The position numbers were made by a program, and so were the translations under genes. This document shows, piece by piece, positions 18,857 to 53,346 of a DNA stretch of 53,346 nt. The notes under the pieces were generated by a model, which had not been told where the DNA came from, did not search any database, and saw only the letters and a list, made by a program, of their open reading frames with translations. Every line of letters starts with the position of its first letter. Position 1 is the stretch's first letter. Origin of the DNA: a virus. Its lineage: Duplodnaviria > Caudoviricetes. Location of the stretch: positions 1 through 53,346 of IMG/VR virus record IMGVR_UViG_3300036982_000579, one strand, 5' to 3'.

Positions 18857-18909
18857 TATCTTCTCCCTTGGTAGATGTCTACATGCTGCCACACGGTGTG
18901 GACTTGAAA

Positions 18910-19058
18910 GATCAGGAGGTGGCCGGGCGTGTGGTGCGTGTTAGCTCGGCGTTGCTCCTGCGAAAGCCCGGAGGCGTGACACTGTGGTGCGGTGCGTTGC
19001 TGCGAGGGACCACTACTAACCCTTTGAGGAGGGACGGTGGCCCGGCTACCACCTGATC
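18910..19058 (+). ncRNA. candidate ~150-nt structured RNA
   Basis: closing helix GATCAGGaGGTGGCCGGGC / GCCCGGCTACCaCCTGATC with a G-U pair on + strand; intergenic. Confidence 0.4.
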
Positions 19059-19158
19059 GTTCAGTTAGAAAGATTGCCCCGGCACCACCGGAGAGGAGAA
19101 AAGGAAGGGTGTAGTGATGCCGAGGACTAGCTCCCGATCAGGTATGAGGATCGGGGCG

Positions 19159-28189: not shown

Positions 28190-28255
28190 TAGATAACTAT
28201 ACAGCATGGGTGTGACAGGGACGAATCCAAATCAAACATTTCTTCAGATTCTTTT
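28190..28255 (-). promoter_or_regulatory. family-1 phage promoter
   Basis: AAAAGAATCTGAAGAAAT...TGTCACACCCATGCTGTATAGTTATCTAC. Confidence 0.75.
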
Positions 28256-37356: not shown

Positions 37357-38049
37357 CGGCCTTCACAGGATATGCCGGTCACATTTCTGCACCGGACTGT
37401 CCCCTTGGTTTTCTAGCTGGCTGGCCCCTGATCTGACGGCAAGTCATCGGGTACTTCAGTTTCAGCATCCAAGGTTACGTCCCCCCCTTCATCTGCCTCC
37501 CCGCAGTCAGTACATCCGGCGCAGTCGCCTGTGTGGTCCTCAATGCCTTGAGTGAACTCTTGCCGAGTCCGTGACCTGTCACAGGTTTACAACCCTGCAA
37601 GGGGTTGCCCTGATGTCTCTACGGTTCTTTCTTCAAGGTTTCAAGGCTTGACCAGAATGTGTAGGCTCCCACTGCGTAGCACCGATGTACCTTGCTCACG
37701 TTGATGCCTCCACCAACGCTTTGATCGACTGTTCTTGCGTCTTTCCCCGCCGGGGAGTTGCACCCCGCCACACTCTGCTCAAGACTTGAAGCCTTGAAGT
37801 TGTTTGCCTGTTGTCTCTCAGGCTTTGCCGTTACTTTCTGTTCCTCGGCTGGAACCGTCACCGTGATTAGTAGTGGTGCGCTACTTGTCCCCCTGCCCCT
37901 CTGCAAGCTCATGCTCGGGTTCGGTTAGGACTTGAGTTGCCACCTCGCCCTTTTGTGAGTCTTGGGTCTGACTCTGGCGGCGGCTTTCTCTATTTGGTTT
38001 GGCTGTTTCCTTGGTTGTTCTCCTTTGTTCGTTTTGCTGTTTCGTTATG
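37312..38049 (-). ncRNA. candidate large structured ncRNA B (~740 nt)
   Basis: promoter plus terminator, no credible ORF, 30-bp interrupted helix 37631-37660/37770-37799, many hairpins. Confidence 0.72.
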
Positions 38050-40771: not shown

Positions 40772-42343
40772 GTGGACCCGCTAGTCGTCATACCACCCGA
40801 ACTCCTAGCACTAGCAACCGAACACGAACGCGAGCAATACCGGCTGTACCTAATCGACCGAGCCGTCGCCGCCGACGACTGGGAAACATGGCTGCTGTCA
40901 ATGGCACCCGGCTACGCTTCAGCACCCTTCGGAGATCATCACATCAAGTTTTGGGAATGGGCATGGGACATACATCCAACAGAACGCCCGAGACCATTCG
41001 TTGCTATCTGGCCGCGAGGCGGAGCAAAGAGTACAAGCGCTGAGATGTGTGTCGTCGCGTTAGCCGCACGACAGAAACGCAACTACTGCCTCTACGTTTC
41101 GGAGACACAAGATCAGGCAGACGACCACGTTGCCAACATCGCTGCACTATTCGAGGATGAAGAAGTCGGATTCGCTTACCCCGAACTTGGTTCCCGGCTG
41201 ATGGGCAAGTTCGGATCAGCGAAAGGCTGGCGGCGCAACCGAGTCCGCACTGGGACCGGATTCACCGTTGACGCTGTTGGGCTTGACTCTGCTGCACGAG
41301 GAATCAAGCTGGAAAGTATGCGACCCGATCTGATGGTCTTTGACGACATCGACAGCGAAGCCGATTCCCAACTCGCAACAGATAAGAAGATCAGGACGAT
41401 CACCCGGAAGCTTCTCCCTGCCGGGTCGAACACCTGTGCTGTGATCGCAATTCAGAACAAGGTCCACGACGATTCGATTTTCGCCCAGCTTGCTGACGGG
41501 CGCGCTGACTTTCTTCGGGATCGGATTGTGTCAGGCCCGATACCGGCAGTTTGGAATCTTGGTTGGGTTGAAGAAGATGGTTTGTTCAAGATCGTTGACG
41601 GGCAAGAATCGTGGGAAGGTCAACCTGTCAATTCATCGCAAGCGTTGATGAATGATATTGGGCTGACAGCGTTCCTTGCTGAGTGTCAACACGCTACGGT
41701 CACGATGACGGGCGGGATGTTTGACCATATCAACTGGCCTCATTTGCATGTGACTGAAGCGGAGCTTCCTGTTATGCGAAGGGTGGTTGTCTGGTTGGAC
41801 CCTGCTGTGACTTCTACCGATTCGTCTGACTGTCAGGGTATGCAGTGCGACGGGCTAGGTGTTGATGGTCTGATCTATAGGCTGTGGTCGTGGGAAGGAC
41901 GGACGACACCGTTGGACGCTGTGAAGCGGGGTATCCGTGCGGCGATTCAGTGGAACGCAACGACATTGGGTATTGAATCGGATCAGGGTGGCGATACTTG
42001 GAAGGCTGTGTATCACCAAGCGTGTGAAGATTTGCGGGCCGCCGGGGAACTAACTGGGTCGGCTCCTCGGTTTGCTGCGGCGAAAGCGGGTGCTGGTCAC
42101 GGGTCGAAGATGACTCGCGCTCAAAGAATGCTTGTCGATTATGAGCGCAACAAAATCAGGCATCTGATCGGAACCCACCAGCAACTTGAACTGGGGCTGA
42201 TGCGGTTTCCGAAAGCGAAGCCTTACGATCTGGTTGACGCTGCGTATTGGTCGTGGGCTGATCTGGCGGGCAAGTCGAATCGTGGGCGTTCTCGTGTTGG
42301 GTCTGCTTCGGGGCAGACGGTCGGTGCGTTCAGTTTCAACTAA
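40772..42343 (+). CDS. terL: terminase large subunit
   Basis: WPRGGAKST Walker A, RG....RPDLMVFDD Walker B, WLDPA, GIESDQGG, FP....DLVDA nuclease motifs. Confidence 0.9.
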   Translation: MDPLVVIPPELLALATEHEREQYRLYLIDRAVAADDWETWLLSMAPGYASAPFGDHHIKFWEWAWDIHPTERPRPFVAIWPRGGAKSTSAEMCVVALAARQKRNYCLYVSETQDQADDHVANIAALFEDEEVGFAYPELGSRLMGKFGSAKGWRRNRVRTGTGFTVDAVGLDSAARGIKLESMRPDLMVFDDIDSEADSQLATDKKIRTITRKLLPAGSNTCAVIAIQNKVHDDSIFAQLADGRADFLRDRIVSGPIPAVWNLGWVEEDGLFKIVDGQESWEGQPVNSSQALMNDIGLTAFLAECQHATVTMTGGMFDHINWPHLHVTEAELPVMRRVVVWLDPAVTSTDSSDCQGMQCDGLGVDGLIYRLWSWEGRTTPLDAVKRGIRAAIQWNATTLGIESDQGGDTWKAVYHQACEDLRAAGELTGSAPRFAAAKAGAGHGSKMTRAQRMLVDYERNKIRHLIGTHQQLELGLMRFPKAKPYDLVDAAYWSWADLAGKSNRGRSRVGSASGQTVGAFSFN

Positions 42344-42381
42344 AAATGCAAGAAGCCCCTCCTTTGTGGAGGGGCTGAAGC
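42343..42381. terminator. intrinsic terminator between terL and ncRNA C
   Basis: AGCCCCTCC-TTTGT-GGAGGGGCT hairpin; T-rich tail on minus strand. Confidence 0.75.
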
Positions 42382-43185
42382 CATCTTGCTGACTAACCGA
42401 AAAGGCAATACGTCCTTTTGTCGGCATCGGTTGATACCGCCAAATTTTTGCACCATTGGGGGTGCCTGCAACCTCCCTTGCAGGTGGGGCCTATCTTCTG
42501 TCACCCGAAATCTACAACTTTCGGAACACCAGAGGATTCGTTCAGCGGTGGGACTTTGTTTCAGGCGATATTCCCTGTGCTGCTTTTTGCCTGTTGTTTG
42601 ATTGAGTTGAACTTCTTATAAGAGAAGCTGAAAGTAATTTCATGCACCTCATAACACATAGGTTTCCGGCTCAGCGAACTTGCGTCCCATACTGGCAGCT
42701 TAGTGAGCGGCGCTTGTACTAGCGTCCACTCCTTCAGCTTGTCGGTTTGCCCCGTCAGACACCACACTTGAGAAGTTTGCAACCCTCCGTTACTCACTCT
42801 CAACTCCTCTAACAAGAAGTTCAACACAATCAAGTTCTTAGAAGATGCCCTTGGACCGGCTACTTGCTTTCGTTCTTACTACTCCACGGATTGTGCGCAC
42901 GCACCGCTTCACCTCAGAACTAATTGCTTTCACCGTTCTCTACCTTCGCTCACCTACTTGCCCCATCCATCCACATCCCTTCGTTCAGGGATCGCTCGTT
43001 ATCCGTCAGGCGAGTCGTGGTCGTTAGCCGTCAGGGGATGCTTCATTTGGCGGGGTATGATGGCACCTCAGAAGTTCCAAGTTCATCATCTAAGAACTTG
43101 ATTGTTGTACTTGAGAGTCTTTGGTGTGCGGACCCTAACCGCCATGTTCCCCGGTGCTTCCGGTTCTTTCAGTTGCTTGCTTGTG
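42343..43185 (-). ncRNA. candidate large structured ncRNA C (~845 nt)
   Basis: promoter plus terminator; adjacent 22-bp and ~32-bp helices, the latter with five G-U pairs on minus strand; module shared with ncRNA F. Confidence 0.78.
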
Positions 43186-43252
43186 TAGATCAGTATACAG
43201 CATAGCGGGGACATTGCAAGTCAATATCAAACATTTCTTTAGATTTCTTTTT
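43183..43252 (-). promoter_or_regulatory. family-1 phage promoter (ncRNA C)
   Basis: AAAAGAAATCTAAAGAAAT...TTGACTTGCAATGTC...TGCTGTATACTGATCTAC. Confidence 0.8.
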
Positions 43253-43334
43253 CGACTCCAAACCGCCCGCCCGCCCAGCAGTAACGGCCCGCCCGTCTCC
43301 TTTACTGTCACACCCTGTCTGTAGTATCTGTTAC

Positions 43335-43565
43335 ATGATCTCAATACAGGAACTTGTAGGCGACAACACCGCAACCGGCTCTCTATGGGAATGCTTCACA
43401 CCCACACCTCACGCTTGCACCGGAATAGCAACAGTGGCAGTTACACAAACGCCTTGCTGCACCGCAGGAGCGGTCACAGAACAGTCATGGCAAGAAGCAC
43501 AAGCTGCTGCTGAACACGCTGAGGCATTGCGAGACGCAGCCGCTCAGAACGAGCTAGAGCTTTAG
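43335..43565 (+). CDS. hypothetical protein
   Basis: ORF after TGTCACACCC...TATCT element. Confidence 0.45.
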   Translation: MISIQELVGDNTATGSLWECFTPTPHACTGIATVAVTQTPCCTAGAVTEQSWQEAQAAAEHAEALRDAAAQNELEL

Positions 43566-43733
43566 AAAGCAATCAGGGCAGATGTCGTCCACGCCGGGCC
43601 GCTGACGTTCCCACCCGTATTGGGCTGCTGCTTCTTTGATTGCTTCAGCCGCGGCAGAAGCGGCGACAGGAGCATTGCGTTTACATCTATCGCATCTCAC
43701 GGTCCACCCCTTCTTTCTCAGTGCTGTAGTCAT
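43554..43733 (-). CDS. small Zn-finger protein (59 aa, not in ORF track)
   Basis: VRCDRC...GW...DICPDC. Confidence 0.6.
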   Translation of the reverse strand: MTTALRKKGWTVRCDRCKRNAPVAASAAAEAIKEAAAQYGWERQRPGVDDICPDCFLKL

Positions 43734-47945: not shown

Positions 47946-48000
47946 GCGTGTTGGGTTCAACCCGGCGGGCCGTGTCACTGGGAGAGGCGGCGGGTCGTCG

Positions 48001-48082
48001 AAAAAGAATCCAAAAGAAATCCAAGAAATATCTCATTTGGAGTTGCAAACTGTCAGACACATGTAGTACTGTTATCTACATA
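48001..48082 (+). promoter_or_regulatory. family-1 phage promoter (ncRNA D)
   Basis: AAAAGAAATCCAAGAAAT...TTGCAA-18-TACTGT TATCTACATAA. Confidence 0.75.
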
Positions 48083-48619
48083 AGCAGTGAGCAACAAGAA
48101 CCGGACACACAACCGGGGGCGAATCGCAGCAAGACGCACAAAGCGTGTAGCGGGTTCCGGGTGACACACCACCTAAAAGGAAATGTGACGGTTGCACACT
48201 CAGCAACAGAAAGAGCGAGTGCTAGTTAGATTCTGTTTGATACCAGAAGACGATTGAAGTGCATGAAGTAGCCTCCGGGTGTAAGCCTTCCTCTCCTAAG
48301 ACATCCTCAGTACGGCTTCCTCAACAGTAACTAGAATGACTCAAGTTGAAACTTGCGGTATCGGACCCAAGACGATTGAGGTGACCAAGTAGTCGAAAGA
48401 CGTAAGCCTTGCTCTCCCAACACATCCCTAGTACGGCACCTCCGCAGCAACTTGAGTGGTTGGTCAGTGGAATCGTCTGGAGACAGACAGGCACACAGAG
48501 TCAAGTGAAAGCGTCGTCAAGAGCGTAATCACCGAAGCGTATTCGGTCGGGGAGCAAGGCAGCCCGATGTTGCGTCACAGGGATAGAAACTTGCAGCTCT
48601 TATTCAGAACATCGGTTCC
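48079..48619 (+). ncRNA. candidate large structured ncRNA D (~540 nt) with internal duplicated module
   Basis: own promoter; nested helices GAACCGG/TCGGTTC, TGTGACG/CGTCACA, CTGTTTG/CAGACAG; ~90-nt covarying repeat. Confidence 0.72.
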
Positions 48620-48630
48620 ACTGACCAACC

Positions 48631-48697
48631 AAAAGAAATATCAAACAATCTTCTGTTTCGACTTGCGGACTGTAGTCGCATCGACTACTATCTTGTG
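48631..48697 (+). promoter_or_regulatory. family-1 phage promoter (ncRNA E)
   Basis: AAAAGAAATATCAAA...GACTTGCGG-17-TACTAT. Confidence 0.7.
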
Positions 48698-49774
48698 TGT
48701 GGGGGGGCAACAACCTCACAACAGCAACTTGAAAACAGAGACAAGCTTGAGCGGCTAAGAGATCAGCAAGGCCCCCACGCAAAGAACGGGACATTCCAAA
48801 CCGGCAACAACGTGACAAACCTTCAACAGACTCTTAGCCCTCAAGAAAGCAATGAGCGCCTTGTAGGTTGCTCACGCAATTAGCAGCACCAACCAAAGTT
48901 CAGCAGATGTCCGCACGTCGGAAACTGTCGGCAGCGGAGGTTGACAGTAGGAACCTGAGTTAGGTACTTGAGCAGCAATCGCAACAGCATGGAAACTGAG
49001 TAGGGTTCCGGGGCTGGAGGATCGTATCCTTCACGCTGCGGGTCAAAACCTCAAAGGTGATAAACGCTGAAGCCTTTAGCTGACACCGATCCATACCGCC
49101 CTACGCTAATCAAACGGACTAATTACCCGGAGCGTGAACAACCTATAAGGCATTCAATGCCCCGAAGTCCGGCAAGGCTGGAATCAACTTCATATAACCA
49201 CCGCGAAGTTAGCGGCGAGCCGGTGAAAAGCCGACCCCCATAGCGGCGGGCAGACTGCTTAGGCTTCTTCTAGTCCTAAAGGGCCAACATCAACACAGTT
49301 GGAATTAGAACCCATAGATTTCCCCACGGGGTGAGAAATACCGTGTGCGTAGTCAGCGTTGAGTTGGACTAAGCGGGTGGGATACCCGCACACATCGCTA
49401 TCACGCAAGTGATACAGGATTGAATCTTGATGAGATAGGCGGAGTTCGTCGGGTCACTCCCGAAACGATCCAAGCGTCAACTCAAGATTCAGGGGAGGGT
49501 TCGGCAAGGCCGGTATTCCGCAGACAAGCACCTTAGCCCGAGCTTAGTGAGCGAAGGAGAGACCGCCGCTGGACTGTAGCCCGGAATGCTGAACCCCCCC
49601 ACCTTCTAGTACTTCAGCGGGTAGCACCGTAGGAGCCGACCAGCAGACAGATGCGGAAAGGAAGTCTGATACAGGCTGAACAGATGCGGCGTGCCGCTCA
49701 AACTCAGTGCAACGACGACTATTCCAAACGCCGCTGCTATAGGGGAGCCGGTGCTGCCCACTGAAGTACTAGAA
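48698..49774 (+). ncRNA. candidate large structured ncRNA E (~1075 nt)
   Basis: no ORF of 60 aa or more in any frame 48884-49605; many long-range helices; 26-bp terminal helix. Confidence 0.78.
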
Positions 49775-49840
49775 AAGAATCTCAAAGATATTTGCAAATG
49801 GCCTTGACTCTTGTAGCCACATCAACTACATTAGTTCTTG
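49773..49840 (+). promoter_or_regulatory. family-1 phage promoter (ncRNA F)
   Basis: AAAAGAATCTCAAAGATAT...TTGACT-17-TACATT. Confidence 0.75.
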
Positions 49841-50558
49841 TAAGGGAGAAACAAGCCCTAGCACGCAACTTGAAAACAGAGACAAAGCATCACGACAAGA
49901 AATACAAAGTCGCTTCCTCGAAAGAGGACACAACGGAGGATGGACCTTGCCCACTCAATAAGCCACGCCAATGGCTTGAGAGGAGCAACACGAAAGTGCA
50001 AGGTGTGGAAGTAGTAGTAGCTGTTTCTGCCAATCGAAAGGTTGAACTATCCAAAGACGCACCCTGAGAAATCAGGGGCATGAGGTTGAGAGCAGCACCC
50101 GCTTCGGCGGGGCCGATACCGAGGCACGGTATCGGGGAGAAAATGGATAACCGCTGCCGCAAGCTAACGCTTGCCACCGCTACTACGGTGAACTCAGGGC
50201 AATCGCAGGCTCGCCCCGCAAGGGACGCAGAGCCGCAAAGGAATACTGGAAGGCTAGACACGGCAACCCACGGTTCGGGGTTGGCGTGTGCCTCAACTGA
50301 ACCAAGCACCGCACCATCTCCGGTCTATGAGATGGGAGGCACCATGCAGCATCGGGAATATCGCCTCAACCAAGTCCCAACGCTGAACGAAACCGCAGAT
50401 TGTGGCTGCGGATAGGAGTAGCTGAACTTGTCAGCGGGGTCTAGCCTGCCCGCCTAACGAACAAGGTAGACGGGGCTTGCAAGTACATAGGAACTGCTTG
50501 CAAGCCTCGCAACAAACAAGCCCTGACGATTCGTTCGTGCAGGGCTGTTTGCGTTTTT
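49840..50558 (+). ncRNA. candidate large structured ncRNA F (~720 nt)
   Basis: four GAAA, one GCAA and one cUUCGg capped hairpins; terminator; module shared with ncRNA C. Confidence 0.78.
50514..50558 (+). terminator. intrinsic terminator after D-E-F block
   Basis: CAAACaAGCCCTG...CAGGGCTGTTTG then CGTTTTT. Confidence 0.65.
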
Positions 50559-50562
50559 GGAC

Positions 50563-50690
50563 CCGCCGCTATTCCGCCGCTATTCCGCCGCTATTCCGCC
50601 GTTGATCCGCCGTTGATCCGCCGTTGATCCGCCGTTGAAATGGCGGTCTTCCGCCGCCAATCCGCCACACCGCCCGCCGCCGCCGGACGG
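50563..50690 (+). repeat. 11-bp tandem repeat
   Basis: (CCGCCGCTATT)x3 then (CCGCCGTTGAT)x~4, then degenerate CCGCC units. Confidence 0.9.
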
Positions 50691-50914
50691 CCCAGCGCCC
50701 AGTAGCGTCAAGCCGATCTGGTACACTTGCTCATATCGGGTCCAAAACACTCACGGGGCCGGTGACCCAATACGCGAAGAAGCCGGACGATTAGTACTCG
50801 CCCGGCCCTTCTAAGACACCTCCGCCATACCCATTGGCGTGTCAGTTCCTGAGTCCAAGCATACAGTACTTGGTCGGGGTTGCACACTTCAGGGTCCGGC
50901 AGGGAAGGACTGAA

Positions 50915-51808
50915 GTGACGATCAGAGTTGAACACAGAACACAGTTCACAGTTGTTGACTCAAGAACTATCAACGATGAAGCCTTGTCGTTGCGCGCCAC
51001 TGGGCTGCTTGTGTGGCTTCTTGATAAACCGGATGGTTGGCGGATCAACTCAATAGAGATCAGTAAGCGGTGCAAGGAAGGTCGTGATGCTATCCGTGCT
51101 GCGATAGCGGAGCTTGAAGAAGCGGGCTATTTGACGCGTGAAAAGTATCGTGGCCCGGATGGTCGTTGGGTGAATGAGTCGGTTGTTCGTGAACGTCCGC
51201 TTGTTGAACCAGATGTGCAAATCATTGAACCAGACACAGACTTTGTTGATAGTCATATTGACCGGGGACTGGAAACCCGTCGCCGGATAACCGGAGCCGG
51301 AGAAACGGGTTCCGGTTTTTCAGGCCCTATTATCAGTACTAAGAGTCAAGACTATAAAAAGACTATAAAGACTTATGTCAACGAAACAGAAAAAGCGGAA
51401 ACGGAAGCTGCTTCTTTACCGCCTCGTTCTGAACTTCAACTCGTTGACGCAGGGCAGATAACAAAAAACGTGGGGACAGCGGAGCGGGTGATGGAAGCGT
51501 GGGTCGCCGCCACCGGGCGCGCACCGGGGAAAGTGAAGTTGAACGCTAAACGTAGGGCTGCTGTTGCTGCCCGGTTGCGGGAGGGGTATACCGAGGAGGA
51601 CTTGATTGCTGCGGCACGGGGGATTGCGTTATCTGCTTGGCATACCGGGGATAACCCTGATGGGAAGAAGTTTGATGATCTGCTTGTTGCGATCAGGGAC
51701 GGTGAGCGGGTTGAGCGGTTCAGGGACATCTACGAGGCTGGCGGTGAACGTGGCCGTATGTCGTCTACGGATCAGGTCATGGCTTTGTACGCTCAGGAGC
51801 AAGCATGA
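50915..51808 (+). CDS. replication initiator (N-terminal wHTH)
   Basis: FTVV....I.D..LSLRA.GLL.WLL..PDGW...EGRDAI.AAI.ELE.AGYL; upstream of loader and helicase. Confidence 0.75.
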   Translation: MTIRVEHRTQFTVVDSRTINDEALSLRATGLLVWLLDKPDGWRINSIEISKRCKEGRDAIRAAIAELEEAGYLTREKYRGPDGRWVNESVVRERPLVEPDVQIIEPDTDFVDSHIDRGLETRRRITGAGETGSGFSGPIISTKSQDYKKTIKTYVNETEKAETEAASLPPRSELQLVDAGQITKNVGTAERVMEAWVAATGRAPGKVKLNAKRRAAVAARLREGYTEEDLIAAARGIALSAWHTGDNPDGKKFDDLLVAIRDGERVERFRDIYEAGGERGRMSSTDQVMALYAQEQA

Positions 51809-52242
51809 ATCTTGGTGAAGCAGGGCTTGTTGTGAGGTTGCTTGAGTTCGGGTGGTCGCAGAAGTTTCCTCCTGAGATGGCGTTGATCTATGTGGAGTGT
51901 TTGCGTGGTTTGCCGTATAAGGCTGCGAAGTCTGGCATTGAGGAAATGTTGCGGACTGAGGAGTTTCGTCCGTCGGTTGCTGCTGTGTGCAGGGCTGCTA
52001 CTGGAGCGCCTGAAGAAGCGGAGGCTTTGGCTGGGGCAGAGCGCTGGTTGGCTTATCAGGAGCAGATGCGGTTTGTGAATGGGTCGGGGCATGTTCCCGT
52101 CCGTCCTGAGGTTCATAATCTTGTTATTGAGTCGTGTGCTGGTTTGTCTGCGGGGATGTTCGGTTGGCAATCACGGTTCAAGGGTTCGTATGAAGCGCGG
52201 GTTCAGGGTGTGTTGTCTGGTTGGAAGGAGTTAGGAGCATGA
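51805..52242 (+). CDS. putative helicase loader/inhibitor
   Basis: L..LPY..A...I......EEFRPSVA motif; position between initiator and helicase. Confidence 0.55.
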   Translation: MNLGEAGLVVRLLEFGWSQKFPPEMALIYVECLRGLPYKAAKSGIEEMLRTEEFRPSVAAVCRAATGAPEEAEALAGAERWLAYQEQMRFVNGSGHVPVRPEVHNLVIESCAGLSAGMFGWQSRFKGSYEARVQGVLSGWKELGA

Positions 52243-53346
52243 AGGATCAGTTGCCGCCTTACGATCTGCAAGCTGAGGAAGCGCTTGTCGGTGCGATGAT
52301 CTTGAATAACGAGGCTATTGGCGAGGTATTGCCGCTGTGTTCCGCTGAAGACCTCTACACACCACGCCTAAGGGTGCTGTATTCGACGATTGCGGGTATG
52401 CACGGGCGTGGGGAACCTGTAGACGCAACAACGCTCTCAGGGGCGCTCACGCTGTCTGAAGGGGAAGCCGCTGGGACGGCTGCTGCGGACATTATGGGTT
52501 TGATAGCGAACGCAGGGTTCGTGTCTAACGTGGCCGCTTACGCAACTCGGGTCGTGAAGTGCGCTGCTTACAGGAAGCTGATTAGTGCTTGTCACGAAAT
52601 CGGTGACAGGGCGTTCGGTCAAGATGGCGACCCGTCCGAGCTGGGCGACATGCTCAACGCTGCGGTACTGGACATCCATAAGTCGGATGTTGTTGAGGTT
52701 CCGGGGGATGTCTGGACGATTGACGGGTTCTTGGATCGGCCTATCTCGGAGCGTCCTGCTTGGGTGATTCCGGGGTTGATGCGTGTCGGGTGGAGAGTCA
52801 TGGTTGTGGCTCAGGAGGGGATTGGAAAGACGGTTCTGTTGCGACAGTTGGGTATTGCTGCCGCTCAAGGGGTTCATCCGCTGCGGTTTACTCCTATTCC
52901 GCCTTGCCGGACGTTGATTGTGGACCTTGAGAACCCTGATGATTCGATTATCGACGTTTGTAATCCGATCAGAACACAAGTTGGTTCGGTTGTTGATGAA
53001 TATGACGCTGACCGGGCGTGGTTGTGGCACCGACCCGGCGGGGTAAACCTGCGTTCTAGGCGTGACAGGTCTGAACTGGAAGCTGTGATCGCCCATGTGC
53101 GTCCCACACTGGTCTGCTTAGGACCGATCTACAAGGCGTACAGGGTTGAGGCACGGGAATCTGATGAGCAGGCATCTTCTGAAGTGATGTCTGTGTTTGA
53201 TGATCTTCGAGTTCGGTATGGATTCGGGTTGATCCTTGAGCATCACGCTCCGAAAGGCTCGGGTGGGACCAGAGACTTGATGCCTTACGGTTCGAGCTTG
53301 TGGTTGCGGTGGCCTGAGATCGGCTTGAAACTTGAATCAACGGGCG
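52239..53346 (+). CDS. replicative helicase (DnaB N-terminal domain plus RecA-fold ATPase), truncated by window end
   Basis: PPYDLQAEEALVGAMIL; AQEGIGKT Walker A; IVDLEN; ILEHHAPK. Confidence 0.8.
   Translation, partial: MKDQLPPYDLQAEEALVGAMILNNEAIGEVLPLCSAEDLYTPRLRVLYSTIAGMHGRGEPVDATTLSGALTLSEGEAAGTAAADIMGLIANAGFVSNVAAYATRVVKCAAYRKLISACHEIGDRAFGQDGDPSELGDMLNAAVLDIHKSDVVEVPGDVWTIDGFLDRPISERPAWVIPGLMRVGWRVMVVAQEGIGKTVLLRQLGIAAAQGVHPLRFTPIPPCRTLIVDLENPDDSIIDVCNPIRTQVGSVVDEYDADRAWLWHRPGGVNLRSRRDRSELEAVIAHVRPTLVCLGPIYKAYRVEARESDEQASSEVMSVFDDLRVRYGFGLILEHHAPKGSGGTRDLMPYGSSLWLRWPEIGLKLESTG

Follow-up and report, generated by a model that had tools for sequence, protein, structure and literature searches.

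We describe here a candidate new modular phage RNA encoded on the minus strand of the IMG/VR record IMGVR_UViG_3300036982_000579, a linear sequence of 53,346 nucleotides (nt) with an estimated completeness of 66%, the whole of which is referred to below as the window. A gene-free stretch of the minus strand, lying between a promoter box and a terminator that abuts the terminase gene, is predicted to give a noncoding transcript of approximately 840 nt that is modular in construction. The two long helices that it contains are real, lie end to end and close two self-contained RNA modules. The first of these (module 1) is a member of a widespread, covarying and unannotated family of structured phage RNAs, and the modules behave as cassettes that are bounded exactly by the base of their closing stems. 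We hold the structural and modular part of this account with considerable confidence. The release of the modules through cutting of the stems by host RNase III is a tentative prediction from the geometry of the stems, and to the account as a whole, in which stem-closed modules of a minus-strand noncoding RNA are cut at their stems by the host enzyme, we give slightly less than an even chance.

The helices and the transcript that contains them

Helix 1 comprises 22 positions, of which 21 are Watson-Crick pairs and one is a U-U opposition; there are no G-U pairs, and the helix continues past a 2-nt internal loop with six further pairs (43081-43076 with 42855-42850). Helix 2 follows it with no spacer (the junction lies between 42826 and 42825) and, when the minus strand is read as RNA, comprises 32 positions with 26 Watson-Crick pairs, five G-U pairs, one U-U and no A-C. 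The five G-U pairs become A-C mismatches when the plus strand is read. The enclosed lengths are 236 nt for helix 1 and 156 nt for helix 2. A sequence-only reading of this DNA had proposed two abutting helices with these same arms (Table 1), one of 22 base pairs (bp) with one mismatch and one with five G-U pairs and one U-U, each enclosing a subdomain of 150-240 nt; the positions that it gave were found to be exact. The sequence CAATCAA occurs both at the 5' base of helix 1 (43104-43098) and just past helix 2 (42604-42598), and TTGATTG, which stands at the 3' base of helix 1 (42833-42827), is complementary to either copy. Helix 2 could be extended in this way to 40 positions at a cost to helix 1 of 7-8 pairs, and a branch-migrating junction is possible.

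The two helices are the longest of the 29 inverted repeats with arms within 500 nt of each other in the whole window. To assess their significance, the best stem with at most one mismatch was compared with those of 300 dinucleotide shuffles. The observed stems have 31 and 21 pairs, while the best stems of the shuffles averaged 14.1 pairs (standard deviation 1.5, maximum 21); one shuffle reached at least 21 pairs and none reached 31. An earlier and looser shuffle metric was too permissive to discriminate and was dropped. Both helices are present in the minimum-free-energy fold of the 851-nt minus-strand transcript (-297.5 kcal/mol, z = -4.81, with none of 20 shuffles as good). The fold of the plus strand is 22.5 kcal/mol worse (-275.0 kcal/mol) and no longer contains helix 2 as a long stem, and the sense fold was better than the antisense fold in all nine transcripts compared, seven of which are distinct.

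Helix 2 looks to have been selected as RNA, as judged from two distinct sequences only, those of the window and of the related contig L015. The arms differ between the two at 11 of 64 positions and the interior, outside one swapped hairpin, at six of 132 columns. Six of the differing arm positions form three double compensatory changes (U-A to C-G, U-U to C-G and A-U to G-C), four single changes keep the pairing through G-U and one breaks a pair. L015 likewise has five G-U pairs and no A-C, so that the two sequences together have seven distinct G-U positions versus no A-C (two-sided binomial probability of about 0.016).

A sigma-70-like promoter (43219-43192) and an intrinsic terminator (42376-42354) flank the region, both in minus orientation. 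The promoter hexamers match nine of 12 consensus positions, and transcription is predicted to start near 43185. The promoter lies inside a conserved box of approximately 70 nt, of which five copies were aligned. The A-rich upstream box, AAGAAATCTGAAGAAATG with up to three mismatches, has eight copies in the window (at 2295, 26772, 28237, 33784, 38097, 40589, 43232 and 46257) versus 0.04 expected. Each of the eight precedes sigma-70-like hexamers (six copies are on the minus strand, two on the plus), and together they are probably a family of phage early promoters or operators. The copies at 28244 and 26790 precede strings of small genes in which ribosome-binding sites are clear and stops overlap with starts; between 43190 and 42345 there is no such string.

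In the relatives the promoter at this locus is either of the window's type or of a second type, which is also present in the window at 48624-48690, and its position and orientation are constant. Similarly, in L015 and two further relatives, L010 and L011, another terminator hairpin occupies this place in the same orientation, giving two unrelated hairpin types overall. Because the relatives replace the promoter and terminator by equivalent signals and keep both position and orientation, these exchanges appear to be the strongest indirect evidence of a minus-strand RNA. No open reading frame is conserved across the relatives. Two candidate genes were considered and rejected: the sole long frame (90 amino acids, 42561-42833, within module 2) contains a stop in L015, and a short frame in the leader disappears in L010, where its ATG is ACG. 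Three other relatives (L012-L014) have instead open frames of about 100 amino acids on the strand of the noncoding RNA, which are candidate genes. The proposal of a structured noncoding RNA on the minus strand, made in the sequence-only reading, is supported by the orientation of the promoter and terminator, by the equivalent signals in relatives and by the lack of a conserved frame.

The 3' tail contains a motif of approximately 55 nt (42593-42537) with a candidate pseudoknot, CAGGC..GGGA..GCCUG..UCCC, followed by GCUGAACGAA. A second copy is found in the window on the plus strand (50337-50394), and across the two RNA loci of this phage and its relatives the motif has 48 invariant columns in seven sequences. 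One compensatory exchange is seen, CAGGC/GCCUG versus GAGGC/GCCUC, alongside the GGGA/UCCC pairing, and the motif may form a pseudoknot.

Table 1. Features of the minus-strand transcription unit, in the direction of transcription
Feature	Positions	Strand	Description
Promoter box	43192-43249	-	A-rich upstream box 43249-43232; -35-like TTGCAA 43219-43214; 16-nt spacer; -10-like TATACT 43197-43192
5' leader, conserved	43106-43190	-	84-99% identity in seven related contigs
Helix 1, 5' arm	43084-43105	-	Read from minus strand; scripted pairing, fold
Module 1 interior	42848-43083	-	Two branches, 236 nt; family motifs, alignment, profile match
Helix 1, 3' arm	42826-42847	-	Read from minus strand; scripted pairing, fold
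Helix 2, 5' arm	42794-42825	-	Directly after helix 1; scripted pairing, fold, L015 comparison
Module 2 interior	42638-42793	-	156 nt; highly conserved versus L015 except one swapped sub-hairpin
Helix 2, 3' arm	42606-42637	-	Scripted pairing, fold, L015 comparison
3' tail with conserved motif	42377-42605	-	Motif 42593-42537; RNA-library contig over part of tail
Intrinsic terminator	42345-42376	-	9-bp G+C-rich stem, loop of 5, U tract; adjoins terminase stop at 42343

Conservation and exchange of the modules

Among cellular genome bins, the closest terminase to that of the window belongs to an Acidimicrobiales bin (58% identity); an actinobacterial host is likely for the phage. In this bin the interior of module 1 has a 57-nt match, located 30 kilobases (kb) from the terminase gene, and two IMG/VR records carry the same sequence. 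The distant homologue is a 272-nt module (z = -6.49) with a closing stem of 7+22 bp that differs in sequence from helix 1. When the two stems are placed in register on the inner CUUGG/CCAAG, 11 of 27 positions are identical and 12 have changed on both sides with the pairing kept. The two phages share an identical block of 25 nt; as a possible antisense sequence it has no other match in the Acidimicrobiales bins G001 and G002. Two further long-stem modules follow the homologue in the distant phage, so that three stand in a row, 4 nt apart. The module next to the homologue (1700-1885 of L136, identical in sequence to 4052-4224 of L151) has a stem of 22+8 bp and contains GGGGUUCGAACCCCC, which resembles the T arm of a transfer RNA (tRNA), although ARAGORN calls no tRNA there.

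Module 1 contains the motifs CCCTGACGGCTAACGACCACGACTC (43036-43012), a second, CCTGACGGATAACGA (43010-42996), and CCCTGAACGAA (42990-42980). We defined the family by CCUGACGGYUAACGAYCAC, a variable hairpin and then CCCUGAACGAA; in the window the first element lies at 43035-43017 and the second motif at 42990-42980. The 19-nt degenerate motif was found at 31 IMG/VR loci on contigs of 5 to 160 kb; at 18 of the loci the second motif occurs within 260 nt as an exact pattern. These loci reduce to 26 non-identical modules and 24 distinct closing helices. In an ungapped scan, 17 of the 24 helices have at least 20 Watson-Crick pairs and start 59-72 nt upstream of the motif. The closing stems are 20-34 bp long in most members and are unrelated in sequence between members. 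A scan with a 14-base motif returned 119 rows, most of them due to chance; 12 passed the second-motif filter and one of these (L240) looked false.

An alignment was built from 12 sequences, namely those of the window, L010, L019 and nine of the ten distinct relatives then known; L218 and later members were left out. RNAalifold gave 37 pairs, 28 of which are changed on both sides. The proportion of paired cells was 87.7% versus 64.9% in shuffles and the covariation score was 0.605 versus 0.209, with none of 500 shuffles reaching either value, and controls in which the partners were slid by 1-3 columns gave 34-43% pairing. In the outer helix, which corresponds to helix 1, 14 of 15 pairs are changed on both sides. 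The window shows the architecture of the family, a two-branch interior within a covarying outer helix whose 5' arm lies about 60-70 nt upstream of the motif. The interior helices contain 20 G-U cells versus three A-C cells. Covariation, which had been put forward earlier as a check on the structure, is therefore strong in the module 1 family. A profile made from the alignment matches the window at 43102-42829 (E = 1.6e-56, the window being one of the 12 sequences) and finds no other copy in it.

No match to the window was found in Rfam 15 at the gathering thresholds, GOLLD, ROOL, HEARO, OLE, 6S, Y RNA, introns, ribozymes and retron RNA included; at E values of up to 10 there was nothing relevant over 42000-43700, and 20 family loci likewise gave no matches. 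The proteins flanking other family members belong to no informative Pfam or PHROG family. We found nothing resembling this RNA in the literature searched, including passages of 10.64898/2026.09.15.751765.

A terminase search of IMG/VR gave 53 loci, nine of which carry parts of the noncoding RNA beside the terminase gene. In L009 (97% terminase identity) an extra module, also closed by a stem, stands between the leader and module 1, and module 2 (218 of 220 nt identical) and the tail follow. L010 and L011 pass from the leader and module 1 directly to the tail and lack module 2, with exactly 227 nt missing. In the mutually identical L016, L017 and L019 and in L020, the leader and module 1 before and the tail after are kept and module 2 is replaced by a non-homologous module with a closing stem of 26-29 bp. 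L018 is truncated by the end of the contig. L015 carries module 2 behind a different RNA, which is 85% identical over 629 nt to positions 49901-50511 of the window, and its homology with the window starts and stops exactly at the base of helix 2. In each polymorphic relative the module boundaries coincide with the base of the stem, and neighbouring closing stems are separated by 0-1 nt in the terminase-adjacent relatives. Module content is hypervariable in this way among phages whose terminases are 85-97% identical. The ratio of G-U to A-C is 2:0 in the stem of the extra module of L009 and 3:0 in that of the replacement module, for which a comparison of L019 with L020 shows one compensatory pair and one break.

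Scans of IMG/VR with exact patterns from module 1, module 2, the tail and the leader returned only contigs already known through the terminase. A terminase search of metagenome contigs (60 loci) gave no further homologue of the noncoding RNA. The corresponding search of genome contigs gave four loci. Loci L131-L135 lay outside the local homologue searches; the whole genomes of L131 and L133 were searched for homologues and those of L132 and L134 were not. A blastn search of a phage GenBank collection gave no match, and for module 2 and the tail these searches found no relatives beyond the close ones.

Proposed processing of the stems and alternative readings

In the mechanism that we propose, transcription would start at a promoter type that also appears to drive clusters of small, probably early genes, would proceed through the modules arranged head to tail and would stop at the terminator beside the terminase gene. 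The long near-perfect stems would serve as double-stranded RNA stalks for host RNase III. Its cuts would yield module 1 (about 240-280 nt), module 2 (about 160-220 nt) and the 3' tail, each as a stable RNA of its own, and the freed modules would act as accessory RNAs early in infection. No RNase III gene was found in the 53-kb window and therefore the host enzyme would act. Bacterial RNase III requires approximately two helical turns of duplex. A role as processing stalks is favoured because the stems exceed what is needed to close a fold (the interior helices have 2-7 bp compared with 20-34 near-perfect pairs in the closing stems), because they exceed about two helical turns and because they are located where cuts would separate the modules. 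The promoter held in common with small-gene clusters and the hypervariable module content suggest accessory early functions.

As the sequence-only reading had suggested, this arrangement is similar to that of the RNase III stalks of the 16S and 23S ribosomal RNA (rRNA) precursors, in which the flanks pair into a duplex of at least 20 bp and the units stand in series in one transcript. A near-continuous duplex of approximately 20 bp or more, as in the rRNA stalks, is also seen in the stems of 22 and 32 bp described here and in the 17 long stems of the family, and such lengths fit a double-strand-specific nuclease. In contrast to the rRNAs, the phage RNAs of 156-236 nt would be accessory and are swapped between near-identical phages, and their cleavage is at present a prediction. 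In the early region of phage T7, double-stranded elements in the early transcript are processed by host RNase III. At the T7 sites the hairpins are simple, irregular and placed between protein genes, whereas the stems in the window enclose large structured domains in a gene-free transcript.

The same stems could be left uncut and act as rigid struts or insulators that allow each module to fold alone, perhaps stacked end to end into a large architecture or multimer, in the manner of the long helical arms of the ornate phage-associated RNAs GOLLD and ROOL. In the window, L009, L019, L020 and the distant phage, successive modules are only 0-4 nt apart, which favours coaxial stacking, and the module interiors contain purine-rich internal loops that are highly conserved and typical of tertiary contacts. 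The predicted pairing between leader and tail in the minimum-free-energy fold would give a junction with protruding modules. GOLLD and ROOL are comparable in that they too are noncoding RNAs, 600-800 nt long, from phages or prophages and are rich in conserved helices and loops, and large ornate bacterial RNAs are described as forming RNA-only complexes in the abstract of bioRxiv 10.1101/2024.12.08.627333. However, the window RNA has no covariance-model match to GOLLD, ROOL or any other Rfam family, ARAGORN finds no tRNA-like genes near it, and it consists of exchangeable cassettes where GOLLD and ROOL have a fixed architecture. The deletion, addition and replacement of modules among near-identical phages is hard to square with a single architecture, and we regard uncut struts as a doubtful explanation.

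A further resemblance is to the bacterial Y RNAs (YrlA, bound by Ro/Rsr), some of which are phage-encoded and in which the 5' and 3' ends pair into a long stem that closes off a structured head. The modules share the closing stem and head, and the T-arm-like sequence of the distant phage adds to the likeness. This reading was rejected on the basis that neither the window nor the complete record of the distant phage contains a TROVE/Ro gene and that neither Rfam nor ARAGORN gives a match. A retron noncoding RNA was also rejected, as the 53-kb record (66% complete) gave no match to the reverse transcriptase family RVT_1.

Several observations weigh against RNase III-released, minus-strand modules. 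Only two of the 21 sequencing runs listed are RNA libraries (X19 and X20, each with about 5% of the sampled words); they are represented by assembled contigs only, which show neither strand, ends nor expression level. X19 provides a single 171-nt contig (depth 21.9) over the tail at 42420-42575 and nothing else across 3.5 kb. In X20 the depth of the contigs is similar over the 3' end of the terminase gene, the noncoding RNA and the region upstream, which is compatible with DNA carry-over or general transcription. Helix 1 hardly varies among the close relatives, where one pair is exchanged from C-G to G-C, two of six have a C-A mismatch and one of six has a G-G. In the ungapped scan, seven of the 24 distinct closing helices are shorter, six having 9-14 pairs and that of L170 having 15 by the strict count and 25 in the fold; the stem of L276 is only about 10-12 bp. 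A long stalk is therefore not indispensable.

The last of these points concerns the mismatches. Over the 17 long closing stems of the family the ratio of G-U to A-C is 14:15 (7:6 in an earlier subset), and therefore wobble pairs do not fix the strand for these stems. The outer stems behave as if every departure from Watson-Crick pairing counts alike, a pattern compatible with selection for a perfect duplex, with weak selection on the individual pairs of a very long stem or with upkeep of a palindrome at the DNA level. The sequence-only reading had held that the G-U pairs fix the minus strand and that selection acts on RNA and not on a DNA palindrome. Both statements are supported for helix 2, in which the changes are compensatory and the departures are G-U only, but neither extends to helix 1, which contains no G-U pair, or to the closing stems of its family, in which the mismatches are unbiased. 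What fixes the strand of module 1 is the set of interior helices together with the promoter and terminator; its closing stem does not.

If the palindromes were maintained as DNA, the modules could be mobile or recombining cassettes, similar to miniature inverted-repeat transposable elements (MITEs) or kept up by hairpin-templated repair, and the RNA helices would be a by-product. Correia elements and other MITEs are 100-300 bp long, have inverted repeats of 20-30 bp, are insertion-polymorphic, form hairpins as RNA and are transcribed and cut by RNase III. Insertion polymorphism is found here as well: the boundaries of presence, absence and replacement lie at the base of the stem, and an empty site that lacks exactly 227 nt recurs in L010, L011 and one X20 contig. 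The unbiased mismatches and the nearly pure Watson-Crick pairing of helix 1 also agree with such a role. However, target-site duplications and numerous copies with conserved termini were not found. There is no duplication at the flanks of module 2 in the window (GATTGT/TCAATC) or in L015 (GCAAA/TAATAAG), and every module is single-copy in the window. No common arm sequence exists between modules or among module 1 family members, which leaves no shared terminal repeat for a transposase, and neither a transposase nor a reverse transcriptase was found in the window. In the comparison of module 2 with L015 the arms diverge faster than the interior, the opposite of what is seen in terminal inverted repeats. 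The G-U bias of helix 2, the covarying interior helices with their excess of G-U over A-C and the flanking promoter and terminator also argue against a purely DNA-level role, which we consider quite improbable.

The X20 contig mentioned above is 256 nt long and joins 42828 to 42600, skipping the 227 nt (42601-42827) that correspond to module 2, as in the empty site of L010 and L011. It shares a C-to-T variant at 42860 with a DNA contig from run X3 that has module 2. The junction could represent a genome variant, a skip during reverse transcription or removal of module 2 from the RNA, either by intron-like excision or by cutting and rejoining at the base of helix 2. The shared variant is in keeping with removal from the RNA. 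However, the DNA contigs L010 and L011 have the identical empty site, and a phage variant without module 2 is therefore the simpler reading. Furthermore, there is no match to a ribozyme or intron family, no RtcB ligase gene was found in the phage and reverse transcriptase can skip a 40-bp stem during library preparation. We regard removal at the RNA level as very improbable.

Genomic setting and significance

The window has the features of a tailed phage, including a frame of tape-measure size (2,066 amino acids), an M15 peptidase, an Rpf-like transglycosylase and a DnaB helicase (52221-53345). The large terminase subunit (40772-42343, plus strand; phrog_38, E = 6.6e-49) is alone on the plus strand between minus-strand units on either side (40580 to 39452 and 46264 to 42345). 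The hairpin past its stop is not followed by a T run on the plus strand and therefore terminase transcripts may run into the noncoding RNA in antisense.

A second and larger noncoding region was observed on the plus strand at 48000-50560, with promoter boxes at about 48000-48075, 48624-48690 and 49775-49830 and a terminator at about 50520-50560. The leader of its first transcript resembles that of the minus-strand RNA. It contains long-stem modules at 48458-48630, 48853-49156 and 49604-49774, in which the ratio of G-U to A-C is 3:4; these stems therefore give no strand signal. Counting the plus-strand cluster at 48076-50560, approximately 3.4 kb (6%) of the window consists of such RNAs. Tandem short repeats, three of CCGCTATTCCG and four of CCGTTGATCCG, are located at 50560-50640, just upstream of the genes for an HTH_36 protein (50834-51808) and DnaB, and are candidate replication-origin iterons. 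More long inverted repeats lie in gene-poor gaps at 37631-37799 (31-nt arms with 107 nt between them) and 18904-19064 (a 23-bp stem in a span of 161 nt).

To our knowledge, few large structured noncoding RNAs have been described from phages and almost none has a known function. Module 1 defines a family with at least 24 distinct members on phage contigs of up to 160 kb, which shows strong covariation and was undetected by Rfam, and the RNA in which it was found is anchored by a clear promoter and terminator and made of exchangeable stem-closed modules. The family provides an easily synthesised substrate for asking whether phages use host RNase III to make sets of accessory RNAs, and it raises the questions of what binds the conserved CUGACGG and CUGAACGAA loops and of how RNA domains travel as cassettes. 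A more speculative extension, which we think unlikely, is that there is a pool of plug-in cassettes: RNAs of 170-380 nt that each fold on their own, with stalks of 20-34 bp, and that would be shuffled as units between noncoding RNA loci and phages, expressed early and released by a double-strand-specific nuclease. They would then serve as accessory RNAs, for example as decoys or sponges for host factors or defences, or would assemble themselves into particles. If this were true, phages would have in this pool an RNA equivalent of their protein 'moron' and anti-defence gene cassettes.

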